Numbered from the stretch's first letter, positions 7,318 to 16,930 are shown. The stretch is 64,000 nucleotides of DNA from Candidatus Micrarchaeota archaeon (GCA_021818995.1 JAKASP010000001.1:157381-221380), one strand, 5' to 3'. Translations and numbers: made by a program. The notes: a model not told the origin generated them from the letters alone.

Positions 7318-8064
7318 CTAGACGTCCCTTCTTTGCGGTAGGGTGCCCATGGCTTCCTTGAGCGATGGTGTCTGGCTCTTCGCGTTGCTGACCACGACCC
7401 CGAACGGCACTTTCTTGCCAGCCTGCACCTTTGACCCCTCGTAAACAACCACCGCGTCCTCGAGTATCGCCCTTGCGCCGATCCTTGCACCTTTGCCGAT
7501 TGTAACCCCGTTTACAAGGCCGTTGATGATAGCTTCCTCGCCTACCACAGCGTCGTCGCTTACCATAGAGTTGCGTATCTCTGCAAGGTCGCGCACCACG
7601 ACCTTGTCCCCTATCTGCACGCCTGGCCCGCCGTCGTACGTGCCCTCTATGTAGACGTTGCGGCCCGTGACCACCCCGTTTCCGAGCTTGGCGTCGAAGA
7701 TGTCGCTTTGCGGTCCTATCGTGCACCCGAAACCCAGATGCACCTCTCCCATGAGCAGCACGCCCCTCTTTATCGTCACGTTGCCCCTCACGAAGACTCC
7801 AGGGCCTATCAGCGCAGTGTAATGCCCGTACACATTCCTGCCTATCTTGGCGCCCTCGCCGACAAGCGGACCTGGGGTGCCGTCCCTGTTCCTGCGTCTC
7901 ACGTAGAATGTGTCTTCGAACGTTACGTTCCTTATCTCGGGGCCAAGCCTCCTGAAGGCGTATGCGCTCTTCAGCTCTAGGGCCTCGCCCTTCTTCAGCT
8001 CGGCGGCTTCTCCTTGCTCTCGCTCTTCAGCCTGCACCTGCCCCGATCTCTGGCGCGTTCCCAC
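7318..8064 (-). CDS. hexapeptide-repeat (left-handed beta-helix) protein, transferase-like
   Basis: The C-terminal 150 aa show repeated [LIV]-G-x-x-x-x hexads (IGPGVFVRGNVTIKRGVLLMGEVHLGFGCTIGPQSDIF...IGDKVVVRDLAEIRNSMVSDDAVVGEEAII). The GTG start is uncertain. Confidence 0.65.
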   Translation of the reverse strand: MGTRQRSGQVQAEEREQGEAAELKKGEALELKSAYAFRRLGPEIRNVTFEDTFYVRRRNRDGTPGPLVGEGAKIGRNVYGHYTALIGPGVFVRGNVTIKRGVLLMGEVHLGFGCTIGPQSDIFDAKLGNGVVTGRNVYIEGTYDGGPGVQIGDKVVVRDLAEIRNSMVSDDAVVGEEAIINGLVNGVTIGKGARIGARAILEDAVVVYEGSKVQAGKKVPFGVVVSNAKSQTPSLKEAMGTLPQRRDV

Positions 8065-8152
8065 CCTTCTGCTTCTTCTCCCGATTATAAATATCTTGCG
8101 TACGGGCGCGCCTGCCTGACAATCCTATTAATTGCATTTGCGATATGCTAGC

Positions 8153-8986
8153 ATGCTGAGGATCGGCTACCATGTCTCGATAAGCGGGAGCATGGACCTT
8201 GCCCTCGACCGGGCGCGAGAGATAGGGTGTACGTGCGTGCAGGTCTTTCCGAGCAATCCGCGCAGTTGGAGCGCGAGGGAGATGCAGGAAGGCGAGGCTG
8301 AAAGGTTCAGGGCTAAGCAGAAGGCGTATAACATAAGCCCTGTCTTCGTGCACATGCCGTACCTACCGAACCTCGCATCGCCCAAGGAAGACGTTTACAG
8401 GAAATCGATCGCGGCTATGATCGAAGCGCTGGAGAGGTGCAACGCGCTCGGCGCCAAATATCTGATAGTGCATCTCGGCAGCCACCTGGGATCAGGGGTC
8501 GAGGCCGGGAGGGAGCGCGTCTCTGCCGCGATAAACGAGGTCGAGAAGCACATGGGCAACGCGACGATACTCCTTGAGAACGAGGCTGGACAGAGGAACA
8601 GCGTTGGCTCAAAGCTGGACGAGCTGACCGACATATACAACAGGATAGAGCACAAGCATGTGGGCTTCTGCCTCGACACCTGCCACGTCTTCGCGGCAGG
8701 ATACGACATAAGGAAGGAGGAGGTGGCCAGGGAGGTGGTCGAGACTCTGGGCATAGACCGGATAGGCTGCATACACCTCAATGACGCAAAGCATCCACTG
8801 GGCTCTGGGCTGGACAGGCACGCTGACATAGGCTTCGGCCGTATAGGCAAGAAGGGCTTCGAGGAATTCTTCTCGCTGCCTGGGCTGAGGGAGAAGCCGA
8901 TGATACTCGAGACTCCGCTTGTGGAGACGCCGAAGGACGCTGCAGGCGAGCTCTCGATGGTGAGGAAGATGCTGAACTACGCCTAG
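8153..8986 (+). CDS. nfo: endonuclease IV (AP endonuclease)
   Basis: MLRIGYHVSISG...VFVHMPYLPNLASP...YLIVHLGSH...ILLENEAG...GFCLDTCHVFAAGYD...IHLNDAK...GSGLDRHADIG match the Nfo TIM-barrel metal-ligand motifs. The ORF-track start at 8132 is TTG, so the ATG at 8153 is preferred. Confidence 0.9.
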   Translation: MLRIGYHVSISGSMDLALDRAREIGCTCVQVFPSNPRSWSAREMQEGEAERFRAKQKAYNISPVFVHMPYLPNLASPKEDVYRKSIAAMIEALERCNALGAKYLIVHLGSHLGSGVEAGRERVSAAINEVEKHMGNATILLENEAGQRNSVGSKLDELTDIYNRIEHKHVGFCLDTCHVFAAGYDIRKEEVAREVVETLGIDRIGCIHLNDAKHPLGSGLDRHADIGFGRIGKKGFEEFFSLPGLREKPMILETPLVETPKDAAGELSMVRKMLNYA

Positions 8987-9633
8987 AGCGTGTCGCAGCC
9001 GAGGGCCAGTCTGCCGCCGAGGCCGTTTGGCATCATTGCGAAGTAGAACGTCTGCTCGAATCCTGTCCTGGGCGCGCTCCTCATCTGCATCGTGGTCATG
9101 CTTGCTATGAAGATGTACTGCACCTTCTCTGTTCCTGCCTTGGTCTCTGAGCTGAGCGCCAATTCCATGTTCCTGGCCAGGGTGTCGGTGATGTCCTTTG
9201 CGGAGTTCAGCGCCTGCTCGGAGCGAAGGCCGCGGCCAAGCATGCGGAGCTCGTCGCGCTCCAGTCCCATGCTCCCCTCGCATTCGCACTTCTCGAGCCT
9301 AAGCTCATAGTCGTGCATGAAGTTGACCATCGTCGCCTCGGTCTGCATCCTTATCCTGTTGCCGCTTACCCCGAAGTAGCTGACCTTCACACGGATCTGG
9401 TCAGGCCTCATTATCTCCGTGTTCGCAAGCACGAATGCGCCTATGTTTAGGCCGTGCATCTTCAGCTCGTCCTTTGTGTAGATGAGCGCCGGGGTCGTCT
9501 CCTTCCTCTGCGCCTCTATCAATTCCATCAGGTCGCTCCGCGCGAGGTAGCGCTCCCTGCGCACCGCGTCAGTGAGCAGTATGCTGCCTCCGCTTGGCAT
9601 CGAGAGGTCCTTTGTCAGCTCATTTCCCTTCAT
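8983..9633 (-). CDS. hypothetical protein, paralog of 9642-10313
   Basis: 216-aa ORF, 8 nt downstream of its paralog. Shared pieces include L-L-T-D-A-V-R-R versus I-M-S-D-A-A-R-K near the N-terminus, IRVKVSYF versus IEVKAAYD, and YIFIASM versus YLFVFKK. No family recognised. Confidence 0.55.
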   Translation of the reverse strand: MKGNELTKDLSMPSGGSILLTDAVRRERYLARSDLMELIEAQRKETTPALIYTKDELKMHGLNIGAFVLANTEIMRPDQIRVKVSYFGVSGNRIRMQTEATMVNFMHDYELRLEKCECEGSMGLERDELRMLGRGLRSEQALNSAKDITDTLARNMELALSSETKAGTEKVQYIFIASMTTMQMRSAPRTGFEQTFYFAMMPNGLGGRLALGCDTL

Positions 9634-9641
9634 AAGAACAC

Positions 9642-10313
9642 TCAGCTGCGGAGCACGCCCAGCTCCCCGCGTTGCGGCTTCTGCTTCTTGAAGACGAAGA
9701 GGTACTCCTGCCTGCCGGCCTCGTTCTCATTCTCCGATTCCGATGCCAAGGCGTAACCGTAGAGCTCCCTTCCTATGCCCCTCGCTACTGTCTTTGCCAT
9801 CAGCTCCACTGGATCTTCGCTGGAATCGAGCATCGTGCTGGAAAGCTCCGTCTTGTCCACCACTGTAGTCGGCAGGTATGTGGTACTGTCGAGCTCTTGG
9901 TGGGTGTCGACGAATACTGCCTCGACCCACAGGTCCTCGATCTTGACCGTGCAGTTCTTCTCGTTGCTGACCATCATGGGAGAGAAGCTCATGCACATTC
10001 CTGTCTGCACGGTTCTGCCATCGCCGTTGTGCGGGTCGGAAGGGTCGTACGCTGCCTTGACCTCTATGCTGTCGGCATCCATGACATAAGCTATGTGCCT
10101 CGCTATCGCGGCCCCTATCGCCCTCCCCTGCTCCCTGAGCCTGTCCTGGGTCGTGACCTCCTGCGGCACATTGGCCCCTGCGGTAAGCAGAGCCGAGTAC
10201 ATGCGCCCTAGCTCCTTATCACTCACCTTGAAGAAGTCCTTGCGCGCTGCGTCGCTCATTATTATTGGCAGCATAGCCCTGCCGTTCGCGCGCCTGAGGC
10301 TCTCCCCGGCCAT
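9642..10313 (-). CDS. hypothetical protein, paralog of 8983-9633
   Basis: 223-aa ORF with protein-like composition. The antisense and overlapping ORFs (9672-10211 and others) are Arg/Leu/His-biased. No family recognised. Confidence 0.55.
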   Translation of the reverse strand: MAGESLRRANGRAMLPIIMSDAARKDFFKVSDKELGRMYSALLTAGANVPQEVTTQDRLREQGRAIGAAIARHIAYVMDADSIEVKAAYDPSDPHNGDGRTVQTGMCMSFSPMMVSNEKNCTVKIEDLWVEAVFVDTHQELDSTTYLPTTVVDKTELSSTMLDSSEDPVELMAKTVARGIGRELYGYALASESENENEAGRQEYLFVFKKQKPQRGELGVLRS

Positions 10314-10417
10314 CTAAGCATCTGAAAAAGCTTGGGCGATAGCATTTAAATAAATTGGTTTTAGCTAAGTTGCTCGGTGCCAGCGGGTACCCTTGCCTTA
10401 TGAGAAGTCGGATTCCT

Positions 10418-11071
10418 TCAGTTCCACCAGTTCTCGTCAAAGATGGGAACGTCGAGTGGCAGCGTCTTCGCCTCGTCGCCCTTGAGCTTTCCGTTCCACG
10501 CGACGGCCCTGTTGCCCATCATCTGGTATATGGGCCCTGAATAGTCGAGCGTGGTCTTGAGCGTGTAGCCTATCGTTGCGTAGGTTATGCCAGTAGTGTG
10601 AAGCACGTCCACGAGCAGAAGCGGTGCTTGCGCATTCCTCTCCAGCACGCGTATGTGCTCGCTCATGGCGAAAATCTTCTCGGTCATGCTAGTTCGGTCT
10701 GAGAAGTGCCGGCGCGCGTGCAGTCCAGAGGAGTAGCCTATCAGAACGTTGCGCTTCGCGATGCCCGCAGCCTCAAGTGGCGGCAGTATCCATCTCTGGT
10801 TGTATGCGCCGGTCATCACAATGGCGACAGTCATGTCCTGCGGCAGTTCCCTGTGGTTGAGCGGCTTCGGTACGAAAGGCTCGGTCAAGTCCTGCATCAC
10901 CAGCGCCGTATCCATGCTCTTCCTGAATGCGGCTTTGATTGCATTGCGCGACTCGCGTGATGTTTCAGGGTCGAAGAGCGTGACCCACGCCGATACTTCG
11001 TTGTCAAGCTGGCCGTTGCTGTATAGGCCAGGCGTGTGGCCTTTCCGTGTGTTGGCTTCAGAGTGTAGCAT
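10418..11071 (-). CDS. hypothetical protein with a phosphoribosyltransferase-like loop
   Basis: 217 aa. The segment APLLLVDVLHTTGITYATI resembles the PRPP-binding loop of type I PRTases (hydrophobic x4-D-D-x-x-x-T-G-x-T), but with only one Asp. This is weak, motif-level evidence. Confidence 0.45.
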   Translation of the reverse strand: MLHSEANTRKGHTPGLYSNGQLDNEVSAWVTLFDPETSRESRNAIKAAFRKSMDTALVMQDLTEPFVPKPLNHRELPQDMTVAIVMTGAYNQRWILPPLEAAGIAKRNVLIGYSSGLHARRHFSDRTSMTEKIFAMSEHIRVLERNAQAPLLLVDVLHTTGITYATIGYTLKTTLDYSGPIYQMMGNRAVAWNGKLKGDEAKTLPLDVPIFDENWWN

Positions 11072-11085
11072 AGGATCGACTTTGT

Positions 11086-11553
11086 TCAGCCCCAGACGCA
11101 GACTCGCTTACCGCTCCTTTTGAGAACGCGCAGCGATTCGTTATCGCGCTCGTAGCCGTTAGCAGACACAACCTTGTCAAACGCCCCGTCCACGAACGGC
11201 AGGCGCCTGTTGTCCGCCACTATGAAGTTTGGTTTTGGCTTGCTCTCACGGCGCAGCACTCCTGAGAGCCGCTTGTTCGACTTTATCAGGTGCCTCTGCC
11301 AGTCGACCAGGACGAGGTCTCCCTGGTTGTAGAGCCTGTGGAACGGGAATGCGCCTGCGCCGAGCTCGAGCGTCAGGTCCCTGCTGGACGGCTTGGCCTC
11401 GTCCCTTATCTTGATGTATGCTGATACCCTGTCTACGAGTATGGGAGGCAGGACTACTGAGAGGAGCGGCCATACGGCCCCGTGGAAGAGCTTTGATGGC
11501 CTATCGTGGACCCTGTTGTCCACTACCCTGCACTCCAGCGCCAGTTCTGACAT
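11086..11553 (-). CDS. minimal class I SAM-dependent methyltransferase-like protein
   Basis: 155 aa. LELGAGAFPF is motif I-like, LVLVD resembles the acidic end of beta-2, and IVADNRRLPFVDGAFDKVVS plus LRVLKRSGKRV resemble the typical Methyltransf_11-like core. It lies 14 nt upstream of the PRTase-like gene. Confidence 0.5.
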   Translation of the reverse strand: MSELALECRVVDNRVHDRPSKLFHGAVWPLLSVVLPPILVDRVSAYIKIRDEAKPSSRDLTLELGAGAFPFHRLYNQGDLVLVDWQRHLIKSNKRLSGVLRRESKPKPNFIVADNRRLPFVDGAFDKVVSANGYERDNESLRVLKRSGKRVCVWG

Positions 11554-11609
11554 AATTCTGTGATTCTTTTCCGGCTTATTTAAGCGTTGACGTTATCGTT
11601 CGTTAGGTA

Positions 11610-12365
11610 TCAAGGATTGTACGATGAGTAGCGCTCCCGCTTTTCCCTCTCCTCGTTGGCGATGTCCCTGCGCTCCTTATCTTCAGCTGTGCGATCGCTT
11701 GCGACACCCATAGCAAACGATATTGCTGCAGTTCTCTGGTCCTCTTTCTCTTTCTCCTTCTGTTGGCGCCGTCTGTCTTTCTCAGCTTCGAGCTCTCTTC
11801 TGGCTTCAAGTATTTTGGATAGCTCTTCTGAGTTTCTTTTTTCTACAAGCTTAACCTCGCGGTCCAGTATCTCGAGCATCTTGTCTTGATCAATTCCAGG
11901 CCTGTCAATGAAGGCGAACCTGGCTTTGAGTATAGTGCGGATCTCAATTGCGTGAAGCCAGAGATAACCTTCGTTGTAACCGAAGTCTTTAGCATGATAG
12001 TGTGGTTCTGCCGCGAGTGCAAATTCTTTTGATTCTACGGCACCAGCTGAAACTATCAGCCGTTGTTCCAACGGCAGTTCGTTAAATGCAGGTTCATACG
12101 CTTTTTTTGCAGCCAGAGTTATTTTTACCTCAGTACTTTCCCCCGAGTCCGTTCTGTCTATTCTATAGAAGCCGTTAGCCGACGGTATGGATGAATCCCT
12201 AGATACCCATATGGATTGGTCTTTAAGCATTTTGAACTCTTCGGGTCTACGCAACCAGCCGACTAGCTCGGGGAGTGTTATCAGAGATGCGTTGCTCTCT
12301 CTTAGCACCGCTTCTAGCGAAGAGAACGGGATTGGAAGTTTGGATACTTTTACGACCATAGACAT
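11610..12365 (-). CDS. hypothetical protein, short member of a tandem paralog pair with a charged tail ending YNP
   Basis: 251 aa. The N-terminal roughly 170 aa align clearly with residues 128 onward of the upstream gene (KLPIPFSSLEAVLRESNASLITLPELVGWLR / RVPIPFSSVESVLRAGSASLITLPELLNWLR). The C-terminal E/R/K-rich tail ends ...YSSYNP. Confidence 0.6.
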   Translation of the reverse strand: MSMVVKVSKLPIPFSSLEAVLRESNASLITLPELVGWLRRPEEFKMLKDQSIWVSRDSSIPSANGFYRIDRTDSGESTEVKITLAAKKAYEPAFNELPLEQRLIVSAGAVESKEFALAAEPHYHAKDFGYNEGYLWLHAIEIRTILKARFAFIDRPGIDQDKMLEILDREVKLVEKRNSEELSKILEARRELEAEKDRRRQQKEKEKEDQRTAAISFAMGVASDRTAEDKERRDIANEEREKRERYSSYNP

Positions 12366-12428
12366 GCCTTCTTCTGATCATCTTCAATTTTTGTTCATTA
12401 AAGCGTTGGTGTGATAGCGCGTCAGACA

Positions 12429-13547
12429 TTATGGGTTGTACGGCGGGTGGTAGTACTCGTCGATCTCTCGCTTTTGTCTCTCTTCCTTTGCGGTCTCCCT
12501 GCGCGCCCAGTCATCGTTGAACCTGTCTGCAATAATTTCGCGATCTCGCTGTCTTGCCGCGTCTTCCGCTCTTCTTTCATACGCCTCCCTGCGACTCTCG
12601 CGCTCTTCAGCTTTGCGAGTTTCCTCCTCTTCTGAAAGTGTAACCTCTCGTTCTAGCACCCTGAGCATCCTATCCTGAGCGGGGCCGGGCTTGTCAACAA
12701 AGGCAAATTTGGCTTTGCCATATACTTCTGTTCCGAGCGAGAAATACCCATGAGGGATTAAGTTTTTCCTGAAGATGCCTATGTTTCTAAGGGAATAGTT
12801 TGGCTTAAGCGAGAGCGGAAATTCTTTGGAAGAGTTAACGATTTTCAGAACCTCCAATCGCTGCTCTAAGGGCAGGCGGAGGAATCCGTTCTGGTAGCTC
12901 TTGTCTGAAATCTTTGTTATGCGCACTTCAGGAATCTCCTCTGTGTCTATCCTGTCTATTCTGAAGAAACCAGGAACCGAAGGTATTGATGAGTCCCTGG
13001 CCACCCATATGGCCTGATCGTTGAGAGCTTCAAGATCTTGGGAGCTGCGCAGCCAGTTTAGCAGCTCGGGAAGCGTTATAAGAGACGCACTTCCCGCTCT
13101 CAGTACGGACTCAACAGAAGAGAATGGAATCGGGACCCTTGATAGCGTTATGGTTTTTGTTTGCATACGCGCTTCGCCTTCCCTATTTGAGCCACGGAGG
13201 TATGGTGCCGAGGCGCCTGCCGGTAGGCCTTGTGTAACATCAATCTCCTTGTGCTGCACATCCACGGCTATAGCAGTGGATCTTATCAGCCGGTTCAAAG
13301 CGCTTAACTGGTCTTGAAGTCCGTCTATTACCGAGTCCGTTTTCAATATGCCCTGCTTCTTCGCGATTGCTGCGGCTTTGAAGATGGTAGTTGTTTCGTC
13401 GTTGATTTCCCGTATAGATTCGTTGATGTGTTGCGTGTATTTCGATCTTTGCGAGCTCTTGAGCGCTTCCAGTCGTTTTATGTTTGCAGAGGTTCTTTCT
13501 CTAAGACACGATGTGAGCTCTGCTTCGCTGAAACCACCTAGCATCAC
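12429..13547 (-). CDS. hypothetical protein, long member of the tandem paralog pair
   Basis: 372 aa. It has an extra roughly 125-aa helical N-terminal extension, then the shared domain, then an E/R/K-rich tail ending ...YHPPYNP. The DNA is visibly more AT-rich than its neighbours. Confidence 0.6.
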   Translation of the reverse strand: MMLGGFSEAELTSCLRERTSANIKRLEALKSSQRSKYTQHINESIREINDETTTIFKAAAIAKKQGILKTDSVIDGLQDQLSALNRLIRSTAIAVDVQHKEIDVTQGLPAGASAPYLRGSNREGEARMQTKTITLSRVPIPFSSVESVLRAGSASLITLPELLNWLRSSQDLEALNDQAIWVARDSSIPSVPGFFRIDRIDTEEIPEVRITKISDKSYQNGFLRLPLEQRLEVLKIVNSSKEFPLSLKPNYSLRNIGIFRKNLIPHGYFSLGTEVYGKAKFAFVDKPGPAQDRMLRVLEREVTLSEEEETRKAEERESRREAYERRAEDAARQRDREIIADRFNDDWARRETAKEERQKREIDEYYHPPYNP

Positions 13548-13647
13548 CTTCTTCAGGAATGCGGTTCTGTCTTCTCTGGAAAGCTCTTTTTCAGGAACAT
13601 TCTCACCTATCGTGCTTGGTTTTGTCTGTTTTTAAGGATTGGTGTTA

Positions 13648-14622
13648 TCAGCTGGTTTCGGAGGCGGTGTTGTTCACGTGCGTGAGCACAGGCACCGAGC
13701 TCATGTTGTAGTACACCTGTATGTGCGCTGTCTGCAGCGGAGTCGCCTGGCTGCCCGGATGGTATGCGACCCAGAGTATGCCGTTGAAGGGGGCCGATGC
13801 GCTGCTTACGCCGAAGCACGGCAGGTCCTTGGCGCTTATGGGCGACGATGCGGTTATGGAAGTGCCATATTGCCCCTGACTGAAGGTGCCGTTCGCCTGC
13901 AGGTAGTAGAACTGGCTCTTCGGCGGCGCTGCGAGGCTGAAGGTGTTCGTGCACGCCAGGTCGAGGTTGTAGAGCGTGTCGTTGGTGTCGTTAGATGAGA
14001 GCGTGAAGGAGAGGTTCGCCGGGGCTGAGAGCACGGGATTCTGGCACTGGAACGGCTGGTCGAGCTCTATGGTTGAGCAGCCCGAGTAAGTCAGTATCGT
14101 AGTTGTGAGAGTGCTGGTGGTGACGGTCGTGGCTATTGTGCTCGTGGTGTTGAGTGATGTGGTTGTCGTGCTCGCCGGCGCTATCTGCGCCCCGCCATTT
14201 ATCCCGAAGAATACCAGCGCACTGACTATCGCTATTATCGCTATCGCGAGCAGGTAGACGTTCTGCTCGATTCTGCGCCTCTGGCCCCTCTTCATGTTGA
14301 AGATTATGTACAGGGTGAGGAGCGCGAAGATCAGGTTGAAGGTGAGCTCCGCGATGCTGATGGTTCCGGTGAACACGAAGATCACGGAGAGGATTGCGTA
14401 GCCGGCCGCGAATGCGAGCTGCTCGTCGACAAGCGGGGCCACAAGGCCCACGACCACTATCACGAGCGCGAGGCTTGACAGCGAGGCTATTCCGGTGAGA
14501 GCGATGATGCCCGTTCCCTGGAGCAGTTCGATCAGCTGGCTGATGAATGCGATGAACAGGCCGGCGGCGAACTCCTTGTAGCTCTCCTGCATTCCGTGCT
14601 TCATCCTGCTTGGTGCCTTCAT
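13648..14622 (-). CDS. polytopic membrane protein with a Thr-rich linker and an extracellular sequon-rich domain
   Basis: 324 aa with about five N-terminal hydrophobic helices. A linker ASTTTTSLNTTSTIATTVTTSTLTTT follows, and then a Cys-containing domain with many N-x-S/T sequons. Confidence 0.6.
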   Translation of the reverse strand: MKAPSRMKHGMQESYKEFAAGLFIAFISQLIELLQGTGIIALTGIASLSSLALVIVVVGLVAPLVDEQLAFAAGYAILSVIFVFTGTISIAELTFNLIFALLTLYIIFNMKRGQRRRIEQNVYLLAIAIIAIVSALVFFGINGGAQIAPASTTTTSLNTTSTIATTVTTSTLTTTILTYSGCSTIELDQPFQCQNPVLSAPANLSFTLSSNDTNDTLYNLDLACTNTFSLAAPPKSQFYYLQANGTFSQGQYGTSITASSPISAKDLPCFGVSSASAPFNGILWVAYHPGSQATPLQTAHIQVYYNMSSVPVLTHVNNTASETS

Positions 14623-14650
14623 GTAATGCGTCGCCTGTTACGGTGTTTGT

Positions 14651-16180
14651 ATGATGTGTGCTAATAAAAAGGTTATAGTATTGGGAAAAGTCCATCGAGA
14701 GTTGCGCCTCGCTAGGCGCTTTGGTCTTTTGAGATGGCACTGGAAGAGGAAGTGGCTCTTCAATATGATGAGGTTAAATCCGGAAAGGAACCTGAACTCG
14801 CACATAATGATAACTGGCGAGAGCGGCGCTGGTAAGAGCAACGTCTGCAAGCTCATACTGCGGCAGCTGGCCAATCAGGGAGCGGGCTTCGTTGTGCTGG
14901 ACCCCCATGCTGAATACGTGGAGCACGCGAAGGAGATGCATGCTGAGGTCTACGACGCGAGCATGCACTCTGTGAACCTCTTTGACCTAGACGGCTTGAC
15001 AGAAAGGGAGAGGACGGCAGAGATAACTGCGATGCTGCGAAGGGTGCTGCACCTGGGCGAGGTGCAGGCGAGCACGCTCTACAGGTGCATAGACTACACC
15101 TACTGGGTTAGCATGAGGAATGGTTCAGTTCCGAACATGCACAGCCTGCTCTACACGATAAAGGTCTTCGGGCGCAAAGCCAGGAGCAAGCCAGAGGCGA
15201 ATATGCTTGACTCGCTCGAGAAACGCCTGCTGGTCATAGCAGGAGAAAACTTCGCAAGGAACGTGAGCGTAGCCAAGATCCTGCAGGGCAGGAGCATCTT
15301 CTCCCTGCACGGGCTACACAGCGCGGAGGCGCAGAGCATATACATGGAGGGCATGCTCAGGAAGATCTACACCAGCGTGCTTGCGGCCAGGGTGAAGCGC
15401 AGGTTCTATATCGTCATAGACGAGGCGGAGAAGCTGCAGGGCAGCCCTGTGGTTGGAAGGTTCGTAGCGGAGGGAAGGAAGTACGGCATAGGGATGATCG
15501 CGATCTCGCAGCGCGCAAAGGCGCTGGACAAGGAGATACGCAGCAACGCTGCTACGATGATTACATTTACGCAGCGTGAACCGGAGGAGCAGAACTACGT
15601 GGCGAACATGATAGCAGCAGGTACGGAGTACAATAGGTTCATCGAAGTGAGGAAGGCGCTGAGGGAACTGCCGAGAGGGTACGCGCTCGTGCAGGAAGCG
15701 AGGGAGAGGAACGCGAAGATGGTGAAGTGCCTGAGGTTCAAGGCCAGGGAGAGGGACCCGAGCGGCGCGATAATGGTGATGGCGAGGAAGGTCGTGGGCA
15801 AGCGGGAGCTACTTGAAAAACTCAGGCATGATGGCTTCTCCGCAGAACAGGCGATTGGAGCGATCACGGAGCTTGTGAGGTCCGGAAAGCTGAAGTACCA
15901 CGTTGTGACCGAGGCGCCGTATGCAGGAACCTGGTACATCGCAATGCCGAGGAACAGCGCAGAGCACGACGTAATGGTGAGCCTGATAAGCAGGTACCTG
16001 AGCGAGAACGGGATTGCGAATAGGATACACAACAACTCCTACGGCCCTGATGTGATCGCATACAAAGATGGCAGGAAGGTTGCGGTCGAGTACGAGACCG
16101 GAAAGAAAAATACCTGGGACACGGAGCGCATGCTTGCGAAGAGGGTAGAAAAATATCCTGAGGTGATTGTTCTGCGTTGA
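14651..16180 (+). CDS. HerA/FtsK-superfamily P-loop ATPase (DUF87/AAA_10-like) fused to a C-terminal wHTH and a PD-(D/E)xK-like module
   Basis: Walker A is ITGESGAGKSN, Walker B is FYIVIDEAEKL, and GIGMIAISQR...ATMITF is also present. The last roughly 120 aa are ...AIGAITELVRSGKLKYHVV...SAEHDVMVSLISRYLSENG...GPDVIAYKDGRKVAVEYETGKK. The true start may be ATG 14765, because a TATA-like aaaaaggttatagtatt sits at about 14664-14680. Confidence 0.75.
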   Translation: MMCANKKVIVLGKVHRELRLARRFGLLRWHWKRKWLFNMMRLNPERNLNSHIMITGESGAGKSNVCKLILRQLANQGAGFVVLDPHAEYVEHAKEMHAEVYDASMHSVNLFDLDGLTERERTAEITAMLRRVLHLGEVQASTLYRCIDYTYWVSMRNGSVPNMHSLLYTIKVFGRKARSKPEANMLDSLEKRLLVIAGENFARNVSVAKILQGRSIFSLHGLHSAEAQSIYMEGMLRKIYTSVLAARVKRRFYIVIDEAEKLQGSPVVGRFVAEGRKYGIGMIAISQRAKALDKEIRSNAATMITFTQREPEEQNYVANMIAAGTEYNRFIEVRKALRELPRGYALVQEARERNAKMVKCLRFKARERDPSGAIMVMARKVVGKRELLEKLRHDGFSAEQAIGAITELVRSGKLKYHVVTEAPYAGTWYIAMPRNSAEHDVMVSLISRYLSENGIANRIHNNSYGPDVIAYKDGRKVAVEYETGKKNTWDTERMLAKRVEKYPEVIVLR

Positions 16181-16204: not shown

Positions 16205-16930
16205 TTAGCTTACAAATTCTTTTATCAGATCGGCCACAGCACCCGCGTGCGCGTAGTGCGCAACATGACCTGCGTCCTGCACAATCTCCAGCACACTACC
16301 TTTGATGTAATTGTTGAACATCTTCGCGTACTTGACATCCAGCGTCTTGTCATCAGAACCCCAGATTACCAGTGCTGGCTTGACTATGGAGCTAAGGCCC
16401 TCCTTGGTCAGGTACTCGCTCGCGGGCTGGTCGTTTGCTGAGCTTCTTATAACCCAGTCTCTGGGGTTGAAGATAAGGGCTTCTGCGATCCATTTCTCCT
16501 TCCATGCCTTTGCGTCTGTCTTCTCTATGTCATCGAAGATCTCTTTGAGGCCCATCGCATCCTCGAGTATTATGCCGTCTCCCTTGTAGTTGCCCTGCGC
16601 GATCAGCGCCGCTACCCAACCGCCGTAGCTGTGCCCGAAGATGCAGCTTTCCTGCAGGTCCAGGGATTGCATCAGTTCTTTCACCGCCTGTGCCTGCTTG
16701 CCAACGGTGTACTGGATCCTTGGTGCGTCCGACTCTCCGTGGCCAAGCAGATCCACGAGATAGACGCACAGCTCATCGGGCAGCTGCTCTGCCAACCTCG
16801 AAAATGACTTGGTGCTCGCCCCGAACCCGTGCAGGAATACTATCTTCTTGCCGTCGGTGCGGTGGCGCTTGCAGTGCAGCGTGCCCAGGCTGGTCTGCAC
16901 GCTTATATCTTCGAGATCCTCGTAGCGCAT
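16205..16930 (-). CDS. alpha/beta-fold hydrolase
   Basis: FLHGFGAS resembles the oxyanion HG motif, GHSYGG is the nucleophile elbow, and there is a C-terminal DAGHVAHY (catalytic His). Confidence 0.8.
   Translation of the reverse strand: MRYEDLEDISVQTSLGTLHCKRHRTDGKKIVFLHGFGASTKSFSRLAEQLPDELCVYLVDLLGHGESDAPRIQYTVGKQAQAVKELMQSLDLQESCIFGHSYGGWVAALIAQGNYKGDGIILEDAMGLKEIFDDIEKTDAKAWKEKWIAEALIFNPRDWVIRSSANDQPASEYLTKEGLSSIVKPALVIWGSDDKTLDVKYAKMFNNYIKGSVLEIVQDAGHVAHYAHAGAVADLIKEFVS

Follow-up and report, generated by a model that had tools for sequence, protein, structure and literature searches.

The described systems nearest to the locus treated here are of several sorts. PRTFDC1, a low-activity paralog of human HPRT among the 6-oxopurine phosphoribosyltransferases (PRTases), belongs to the type I phosphoribosyltransferase (PRT) superfamily (Pfam PF00156), and a PRT-type nucleotide-binding loop is found also in the PRTase-domain toxins ShosT and PsyrT of the anti-phage systems Shosta and PsyrTA. 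PH0226 of Pyrococcus (PDB 1ve3) is a class I methyltransferase of 227 residues, and 'Ca. Mancarchaeum acidiphilum' Mia14, a cultured relative among the Micrarchaeota, is described as having genomic islands rich in hypothetical proteins (PMC5498576). All of these have points of likeness to a group of minus-strand genes, g1 to g4 (8983-11553), in a stretch of 64,000 nucleotides from a Candidatus Micrarchaeota archaeon (GCA_021818995.1, JAKASP010000001.1:157381-221380), the whole of which is called the window and supplies the coordinates used throughout. An earlier note on this DNA had taken the four genes for one functional module. Our analysis points instead, with fair assurance, to two independent pairs, g4-g3 and g2-g1, in the distal part of a lineage-specific block of seven genes. 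The four genes, as given by the list of open reading frames (ORFs), and two promoter-like elements read from the sequence are as follows.

g1, 8983-9633, minus strand: orphan of 216 amino acids (aa), a paralog of g2 and probable second gene of the g2-g1 pair.
g2, 9642-10313, minus strand: orphan of 223 aa, probable first gene of the g2-g1 pair.
TATA-box-like element TTTATTTAAAT, 10344-10354, minus strand: 31-41 nucleotides (nt) upstream of the g2 start, within a 104-nt gap.
g3, 10418-11071, minus strand: 217 aa, by its family profile a divergent member of an HGPRT-like type I PRT-fold family.
g4, 11086-11553, minus strand: 155 aa, class I S-adenosylmethionine (SAM)-methyltransferase-like by sub-threshold matches, probable first gene of the g4-g3 pair.
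TATA-box-like element CTTAAATAA, 11576-11584, minus strand: 23-31 nt upstream of the g4 start.

The gene order of the four is not conserved in relatives, where g4 is met without g3, g3 without g4, g2 or g1, and g2-g1 without g3. The g2-g1 pairing is retained in a 1200-nt metagenome contig (L003), this being the only pairing of the four seen kept in any relative, and the co-directional gene lying upstream of the pair there is unrelated to g3. DNA identity between L003 and the window stands at 87% from 10366 down to 9565, and so the homology starts within the 104-nt gap, just upstream of the TTTATTTAAAT box. An 877-nt contig (L012) carries a g4 homolog 65 nt from a HerA-like ATPase gene and divergent from it, the homology to the window being limited to 42 nt upstream and the g4 ORF itself. 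The GCTTAAATAG element (a TTAAATA box) is found upstream of this homolog also, and the 115 nt past its stop do not encode g3 and carry a copy of the sequence which in the window spans the promoter-like region of g7 and the HerA 5' end. At the locus of the closest g3 homolog (47% identity, locus L001) the upstream side is without a g4-like gene, and the downstream side carries genes for Fic and lipoyl synthase. Across this locus and four others of the g3 family (L013-L016, where the neighbours of the g3-family genes are varied) no g4, g1 or g2 homolog was found by tblastn at E <= 1.

The two TATA-like boxes (10344-10354 and 11576-11584) may well be the promoters of g2-g1 and g4-g3 units respectively, and no TATA-like element was seen upstream of g3 or in the 70 nt upstream of g1. 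Because a box and a homology break fall within the 104-nt gap, no box precedes g3 or g1, and the genes occur separately in relatives, two bicistronic units are the most economical reading of the locus, each of which would be independent of the other and be read from its own archaeal TATA-like promoter. The putative g4-g3 unit, with its 14-nt gap, would then be a pairing known in this genome alone.

The run to which g1-g4 belong is longer than four genes. From g7 to g1 (8983-14622) there extends what appears to be a lineage-specific block of 5.6 kb, set between two genes, nfo and one for a HerA-like ATPase, that are direct neighbours in related Micrarchaeota-like archaea. The remaining genes of the block, its flanks and a third box are these.

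g5, 11610-12365, minus strand: orphan of 251 aa, a paralog of g6, with no significant family match.
g6, 12429-13547, minus strand: orphan of 372 aa, a paralog of g5, likewise with no significant family match.
g7, 13648-14622, minus strand: membrane protein of 324 aa predicted from the translation, first gene of the seven-gene block.
TATA-like box CTTTTTATTA of g7, about 14660-14670, minus strand: read from the sequence, within the opening codons of the HerA-like gene, which is divergent from g7.
nfo (deoxyribonuclease IV), 8132-8986, plus strand: conserved left flank, convergent with g1 (TIGR00587, E 4e-73).
HerA/CedD-like ATPase gene, 14651-16180, plus strand: conserved right flank of the block (Pfam DUF87/HerA, E 2.7e-13).

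In the relative L017, where nfo is 74% and the HerA-like gene 73% identical to those of the window, nfo directly adjoins the HerA-like gene, and none of g1-g7 lies between the two in L017 or in the more distant L018, L020 and L006. In L019 the same slot holds one unrelated gene. The earlier note had described the four minus-strand ORFs correctly, with their sizes, their quoted strings and spacings of 8, 104 and 14 nt for g1/g2, g2/g3 and g3/g4, and had placed them immediately after nfo. In fact nfo is on the plus strand and convergent with g1, the two stop codons overlapping on opposite strands in a palindrome CTAG, and the co-directional run counts seven genes, g7 to g1, ending at the divergent HerA-like gene.

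In the proposal of a single four-gene module, a PRTase-like and a methyltransferase-like protein would act on a nucleotide or a signal derived from one, and the duplicated orphans would be partners or effectors in signalling or defence. That all four genes are co-directional and closely spaced speaks for it, as do the PRT fold of g3 and the methyltransferase-like character of g4. Yet tight packing of four co-directional genes is the chance expectation in this genome, since the window is about 91% coding, with same-strand runs reaching 9 genes and same-strand gaps whose median is 25 nt (by a rough gene map), and among these gaps that of 104 nt ranks with the larger ones and holds both a promoter-like box and a break in homology. 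Only g2-g1 stays adjacent in any relative. Synteny, whose loss in relatives the earlier note had itself named as refuting a module, is broken in L012, L001, L013-L016 and L003, and the locus exists without the four in a relative whose flanks are about 73% identical. A single module is on these grounds highly improbable, and its appearance seems an accident of gene packing in a compact, high-turnover genome, which tempers the inferring of function from co-direction alone in genomes of the DPANN type.

A more radical doubt is that the ORFs are not genes at all, and are chance frames in GC-rich DNA or decaying pseudogenes. Nearly all of the proteins are singletons or near-singletons in 15 billion proteins, and long overlapping alternative ORFs exist on both strands. 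Against this, codon comparison of g2 and g4, each with the sole homolog found, gives ratios of nonsynonymous to synonymous substitution (dN/dS) of 0.17 and 0.15 respectively, and purifying selection acts on at least these two genes. The homologs have identical lengths (223 and 155 aa), g3 sits in a family of 52 representatives and has a confident structural model, and g1 is a significant paralog of g2 whose start is conserved in L003. The four flagged ORFs are real genes, the contrary case being already refuted for g2, g3 and g4 and scarcely credible overall.

The paralogy of g1 and g2, correctly seen in the earlier note, is real but weak. BLASTP finds 27% identity over 73 N-terminal residues (E 5e-5), and the Smith-Waterman score of 63 compares with 32.7 +/- 5.2 for shuffled sequences (z about 5.8), a score of 63 being reached by none of 2000 shuffles. 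Among 5.8 billion protein clusters g2 has a single homolog, P0008, of equal length (223 aa) and 83% identity, and in L003 the ORF next after the g2 homolog shares 82% identity with g1 over the first 22 residues of g1, with the 8-nt gap retained. The g2-g1 unit may encode two paralogous alpha/beta proteins which probably work together, for instance as a heterodimer. The two proteins are indeed orphans, since neither they nor g3 have a significant match in Pfam, NCBIfam, PHROGs or PADLOC, the sole matches being those of g2 at chance level (E 0.036 and 0.099). A g1/g2 profile found no match among PDB sequences at E <= 10 and no relatives in viral contigs, and hhalign revealed no relationship of this profile to the g3 family, g4 or g5/g6. 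The AlphaFold2 (AF2) model of g2, built on a three-sequence alignment, is of low confidence (predicted local distance difference test, pLDDT, 49.9), so that its Foldseek matches were set aside as meaningless and no meaningful fold match is left.

For g3 the claim had been a PRTase-like protein with a degenerate loop for phosphoribosyl pyrophosphate (PRPP), based on the string LLLVDVLHTTGIT, which is present as quoted. On its own g3 has no match in Pfam or NCBIfam (E <= 1), nor in PHROGs, PADLOC or the PDB, and the PRT-like identity is for this reason visible only at the level of the family, where the claim is borne out. A profile of g3 and P0002, run exhaustively with HMMER against 1.84 billion representatives, collected 52 proteins of about 210-260 aa, most of which have in the family alignment the canonical type I PRTase PRPP loop LLVDDxxxTGxT. 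Pfam Pribosyltran (PF00156) is matched by 10 of 50 members (best E 2.3e-9), and a profile of the 50 finds in the PDB PRTFDC1 (E 9e-7), Giardia GPRT (7e-6), many HGPRTs at about 1e-3 and also PRPP synthetases. NCBIfam and PADLOC scans of the whole family gave weak generic PRTase matches only. An AF2 model of g3 on the family alignment is confident (pLDDT 89.5; predicted template-modelling score, pTM, 0.86), and its order of strands and helices matches the PRT core; the top Foldseek matches of this model are HGPRTs, although weak ones (E 8e-3, template-modelling score, TM, about 0.3), and in a viral structure library the best match is phage Hpt. At the level of profile comparison g3 is thus placed as a diverged, degenerate member of a rare and undescribed family of HGPRT-like PRT fold.

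The likeness to PRTFDC1 extends over three functional loops, with VMtgGY of the g3-family profile aligned to VLKGGY in the pyrophosphate (PPi) loop, krFsDGtsMagk to LKSYRNDQSMGEM in the flexible catalytic loop and LlvDDvieTGlT to LIVEDVVGTGRT in the PRPP loop. The family differs from HGPRT in having motifs of its own (GYSSG, FSDG.sM and, near the C-terminus, P-I-x-T-E), an N-terminal part longer by about 75 residues and a C-terminal region that does not resemble the purine-binding hood, besides the weak fold similarity already given. In g3 itself the PRPP loop reads LLLV-D155-V156-LHT-T160-G161-I162-T163, with T159 preceding T160. The first acidic residue, D155, and T160-G161-x-T163 are kept, and V156 replaces the second acidic residue of HGPRT and PRTFDC1, a position which is D or E in 25 of the 50 family members. 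The catalytic base, mapped by way of the PRTFDC1 alignment, falls at T159 where PRTFDC1 has Gly, and is D or E in 23 of the 50; in human HPRT this position is the catalytic Asp137. In addition R126 of g3 sits where 44 of 50 members have G.

By analogy with HPRT and PRTFDC1, g3 should bind a ribose-5-phosphate ligand yet be a poor or altered transferase. Most likely the ligand would be PRPP or a nucleoside monophosphate, with transferase activity weak, altered or absent, and the protein could serve as a sensor or pseudoenzyme or else as a salvage enzyme with unusual chemistry. Tandem paralogs of the g3 family occur on two unrelated metagenome contigs (L014 2150-3754 and L016 222-1764), and in the L016 pair a canonical DD...D-TG-T loop is seen in one copy and a strongly degenerate loop in its partner. 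The family is rare (52 in 1.84 billion), is often found in tandem and has lost catalytic acids in about half of its members. It might have branched off from the HGPRT fold towards a new function in small archaea of symbiotic type, either sensing PRPP or a nucleotide or carrying out salvage with a new acceptor, with active and inactive paralogs paired, and in this genome it would have been recruited beside a minimal SAM-binding protein. This is a tentative suggestion, and we would hold it with more doubt than belief. Being small and undescribed, with its own motifs and a frequent loss of catalytic residues, the family bears on the handling of purines and PRPP in nucleotide-dependent symbiotic archaea. 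In the few contexts seen the neighbours of g3-family genes are archaeal or unassigned, and a search of the literature on phosphoribosyltransferase in combination with Micrarchaeota gave nothing of relevance.

Two side observations belong with this family. The tandem copies of L016 are reminiscent of enzyme/pseudoenzyme pairs. Near the g3-like and lipoate-protein ligase genes of L001 (3256-5279) and L013 (3999-5995) each locus encodes two proteins that are unannotated and have no Pfam match; they measure about 330-346 aa, and their identities from one contig to the other are 62% and 42%.

As for g4, which the earlier note had rightly called a stripped-down class I methyltransferase core, the strings LELGAG...LPFVDGAFDKVVS are found in it, and its matches are sub-threshold throughout, to Methyltransf_25 (E 2.5e-4, 22.1 bits, cut-off 27) and Methyltransf_11 (E 1.6e-3, 19.5 bits, cut-off 21.2) in Pfam and to ArsM_2 in NCBIfam (E 1.3e-4). 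Profile alignment brings residues 58-151 onto residues 39-139 of PH0226, and the shared segments include motif I (ELGAGA), the acidic D84 that ends strand 2, and ADNRRLPF...FDKVVS and RVLKxxGK, which align also to the Pfam models. The residues E63-L-G65-A-G67, D84 and A113-D114-N115...F125 align to PH0226 and are kept in the single homolog of g4, P0009 (70% identity). The alignment with 1ve3 ends four residues before the g4 terminus, after the equivalent of strand 5, and so g4 is about 90 residues shorter at its end than PH0226 and is without strands 6-7 and the substrate-binding part. This shortness is not an artefact of truncation, because P0009 has the equal length of 155 aa. Further departures from class I methyltransferases are a Phe for the third Gly of GxGxG and a conserved N-terminal extension of 55 residues, in a protein with only one homolog known. 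A profile scan of viral contigs gave no relatives of g4. The description that suits g4 best is that of a minimal SAM-binding, methyltransferase-like protein, the SAM binding being what the conserved motifs would predict. That g4 and g3 might be one split gene was considered and ruled out, the g4 homolog having the same 155-aa length and the same C-terminus.

A number of points weigh against reading the four genes as two independent pairs. The promoter calls depend on the reading of the sequence alone, and g4 and g3, being 14 nt apart with no visible promoter between, are probably co-transcribed here and could cooperate. The breaks in synteny are seen on metagenome contigs of small size (877, 1200 and 8129 nt), which show lost adjacency and not genome-wide absence, and the comparative sample is tiny, with one close homolog each for g2, g3 and g4, the three of the four genes that were searched individually for homologs. 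On the side of the proteins, the modelled PRT fold of g3 is structurally weakly supported (the Foldseek E of 8e-3 and TM of about 0.3), and the methyltransferase similarity of g4 stays under the Pfam gathering scores.

The link to nucleotide signalling or defence, which belonged to the idea of one module, has some further matter on its side, for 5 of 50 members of the g3 family match PsyrT and 2 of 50 match ShosT weakly in PADLOC (best E 9e-4), and the variable slot lies beside a HerA-like ATPase gene whose best PADLOC match is mad8. However such matches are expected of any protein with a PRPP loop, this generic loop being all that is shared with the ShosT and PsyrT toxins, and the HerA-like gene adjoins nfo with or without the block. 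None of g1-g4 matches PADLOC (at E <= 0.1) or PHROGs, and g3 differs from the toxin systems also in that their partner genes are absent and the contexts of its family are heterogeneous. The proposed link is not supported. For the block at large a role in defence or host interaction is possible, with no supporting family match.

Another reading takes the seven genes together as an accessory island of variable content, serving perhaps in defence, counter-defence or host interaction of an episymbiotic archaeon. Promoter-plus-ORF cassettes would be gained, lost and moved within it, g4-g3 and g2-g1 being two such cassettes. The nfo/HerA slot is indeed variable, being empty in L017, L018, L020 and L006, occupied by one unrelated gene in L019 and by the g4 homolog beside the HerA-like gene in L012, and by seven genes in the window. 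Homology to relatives is sharply bounded so as to enclose a promoter and ORFs, and the g4 homolog of L012 has a version of the HerA 5' end on either side. The GC content of g5 (0.475) and g6 (0.498) deviates, the predicted membrane protein g7 has a Thr-rich linker, and the hypothetical-rich islands of Mia14 (PMC5498576) provide a precedent, being likewise lineage-specific orphan blocks between conserved neighbours in a small archaeal genome. The block differs from these islands in its size of 5.6 kb, in having neither integrase nor att-like repeats, and in that only g5 and g6 deviate in composition, g1-g4 and g7 having the GC content of their neighbours (0.57-0.60). Family scans found no integrase or transposase in the block, and a search for direct or inverted repeats flanking it gave only short matches at chance level. 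There is no defence-family match for g1-g6 and only a chance-level one for g7 (BrxB). The turnover may moreover be general and not specific to the slot, because gene content differs at other places too between the window and L017. An accessory island is compatible with the two-pair reading, to which it would add a putative function, and as an account of the block we regard it as unlikely. What the two pairs do offer is a concrete case of promoter-plus-ORF cassettes whose place around a conserved nfo/HerA-like pair differs from one close relative to another. The novelty lies in a rare HGPRT-like family and in orphan genes of the kind typical of DPANN-type genomes, and is of modest interest for the family and of low interest as a system.

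The bracketing in L012 is made up of the true HerA start, MFYKRKDTIILGKVH..., on one side of the g4 homolog and of a 38-nt remnant after it on the other (L012 785-824 against window 14645-14682, 30/36 identical with a 15-nt exact run). The arrangement resembles an insertion of a cassette of about 590 nt at the HerA 5' end. The remnant as a target-site duplication left by a mobile element was considered and is kept as an observation only, since the stretch is the same as that of the g7 promoter region and there is no gene for mobility beside it.

Of the other proteins in the block, g5 and g6 are 42% identical (E 3e-60) and have highly charged, Arg/Glu-rich C-terminal tails ending in YxPPYNP or SSYNP. 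Neither of them shows a significant match to a family, the PDB or viral contigs, the g5/g6 profile giving noise against the PDB. A multi-span membrane topology is predicted for g7. This protein contains a Thr-rich linker, and N-x-S/T sequons are abundant in its C-terminal domain. It has no significant family match, those to PHROGs (E 0.025) and to BrxB in PADLOC (E 0.037) being at chance level. Between its start codon and that of the HerA-like gene, which runs the other way, there are only 28 nt. Within the window no other paralogs of g1-g7 were found.

The flanks are better conserved. The best genome matches of nfo and the HerA-like protein are in Candidatus Micrarchaeota metagenome-assembled genomes (MAGs; 44-48% identity), and identities of 45-73% are seen with HerA-like orthologs from Micrarchaeota MAGs and from metagenome contigs. 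The HerA/CedD-like ATPase, of 509 aa, has mad8 as its best PADLOC match (E 3.6e-25) and a weak AHJR-like nuclease match at its C-terminus (E 0.025). It is a conserved neighbour of nfo in Micrarchaeota-like genomes (L004, L006, L017-L020), adjacent in L006, L017, L018 and L020, and the pairing may be meaningful for DNA repair or uptake.

Beside nfo on its other side there is a second insertion or deletion relative to L017. Between a 216-aa gene (5051-5701) and nfo there are three genes at 5541-8064, namely two plus-strand orphans (274 and 295 aa) and, on the minus strand, one for a hexapeptide-repeat transferase (7318-8064), and all three are absent at the same position in L017. Pfam searches of the slot genes of relatives and of other neighbours gave nothing except alpha/beta-hydrolase matches, for a 241-aa gene at 16205-16930, and nearly all the others are orphans. 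The archaeal nature of the window is seen also in a tRNA with an intron (2082-2203, plus strand), which was missed by ARAGORN in bacterial mode and found by Rfam, and which adjoins a tRNA-His on the minus strand (1953-2025).

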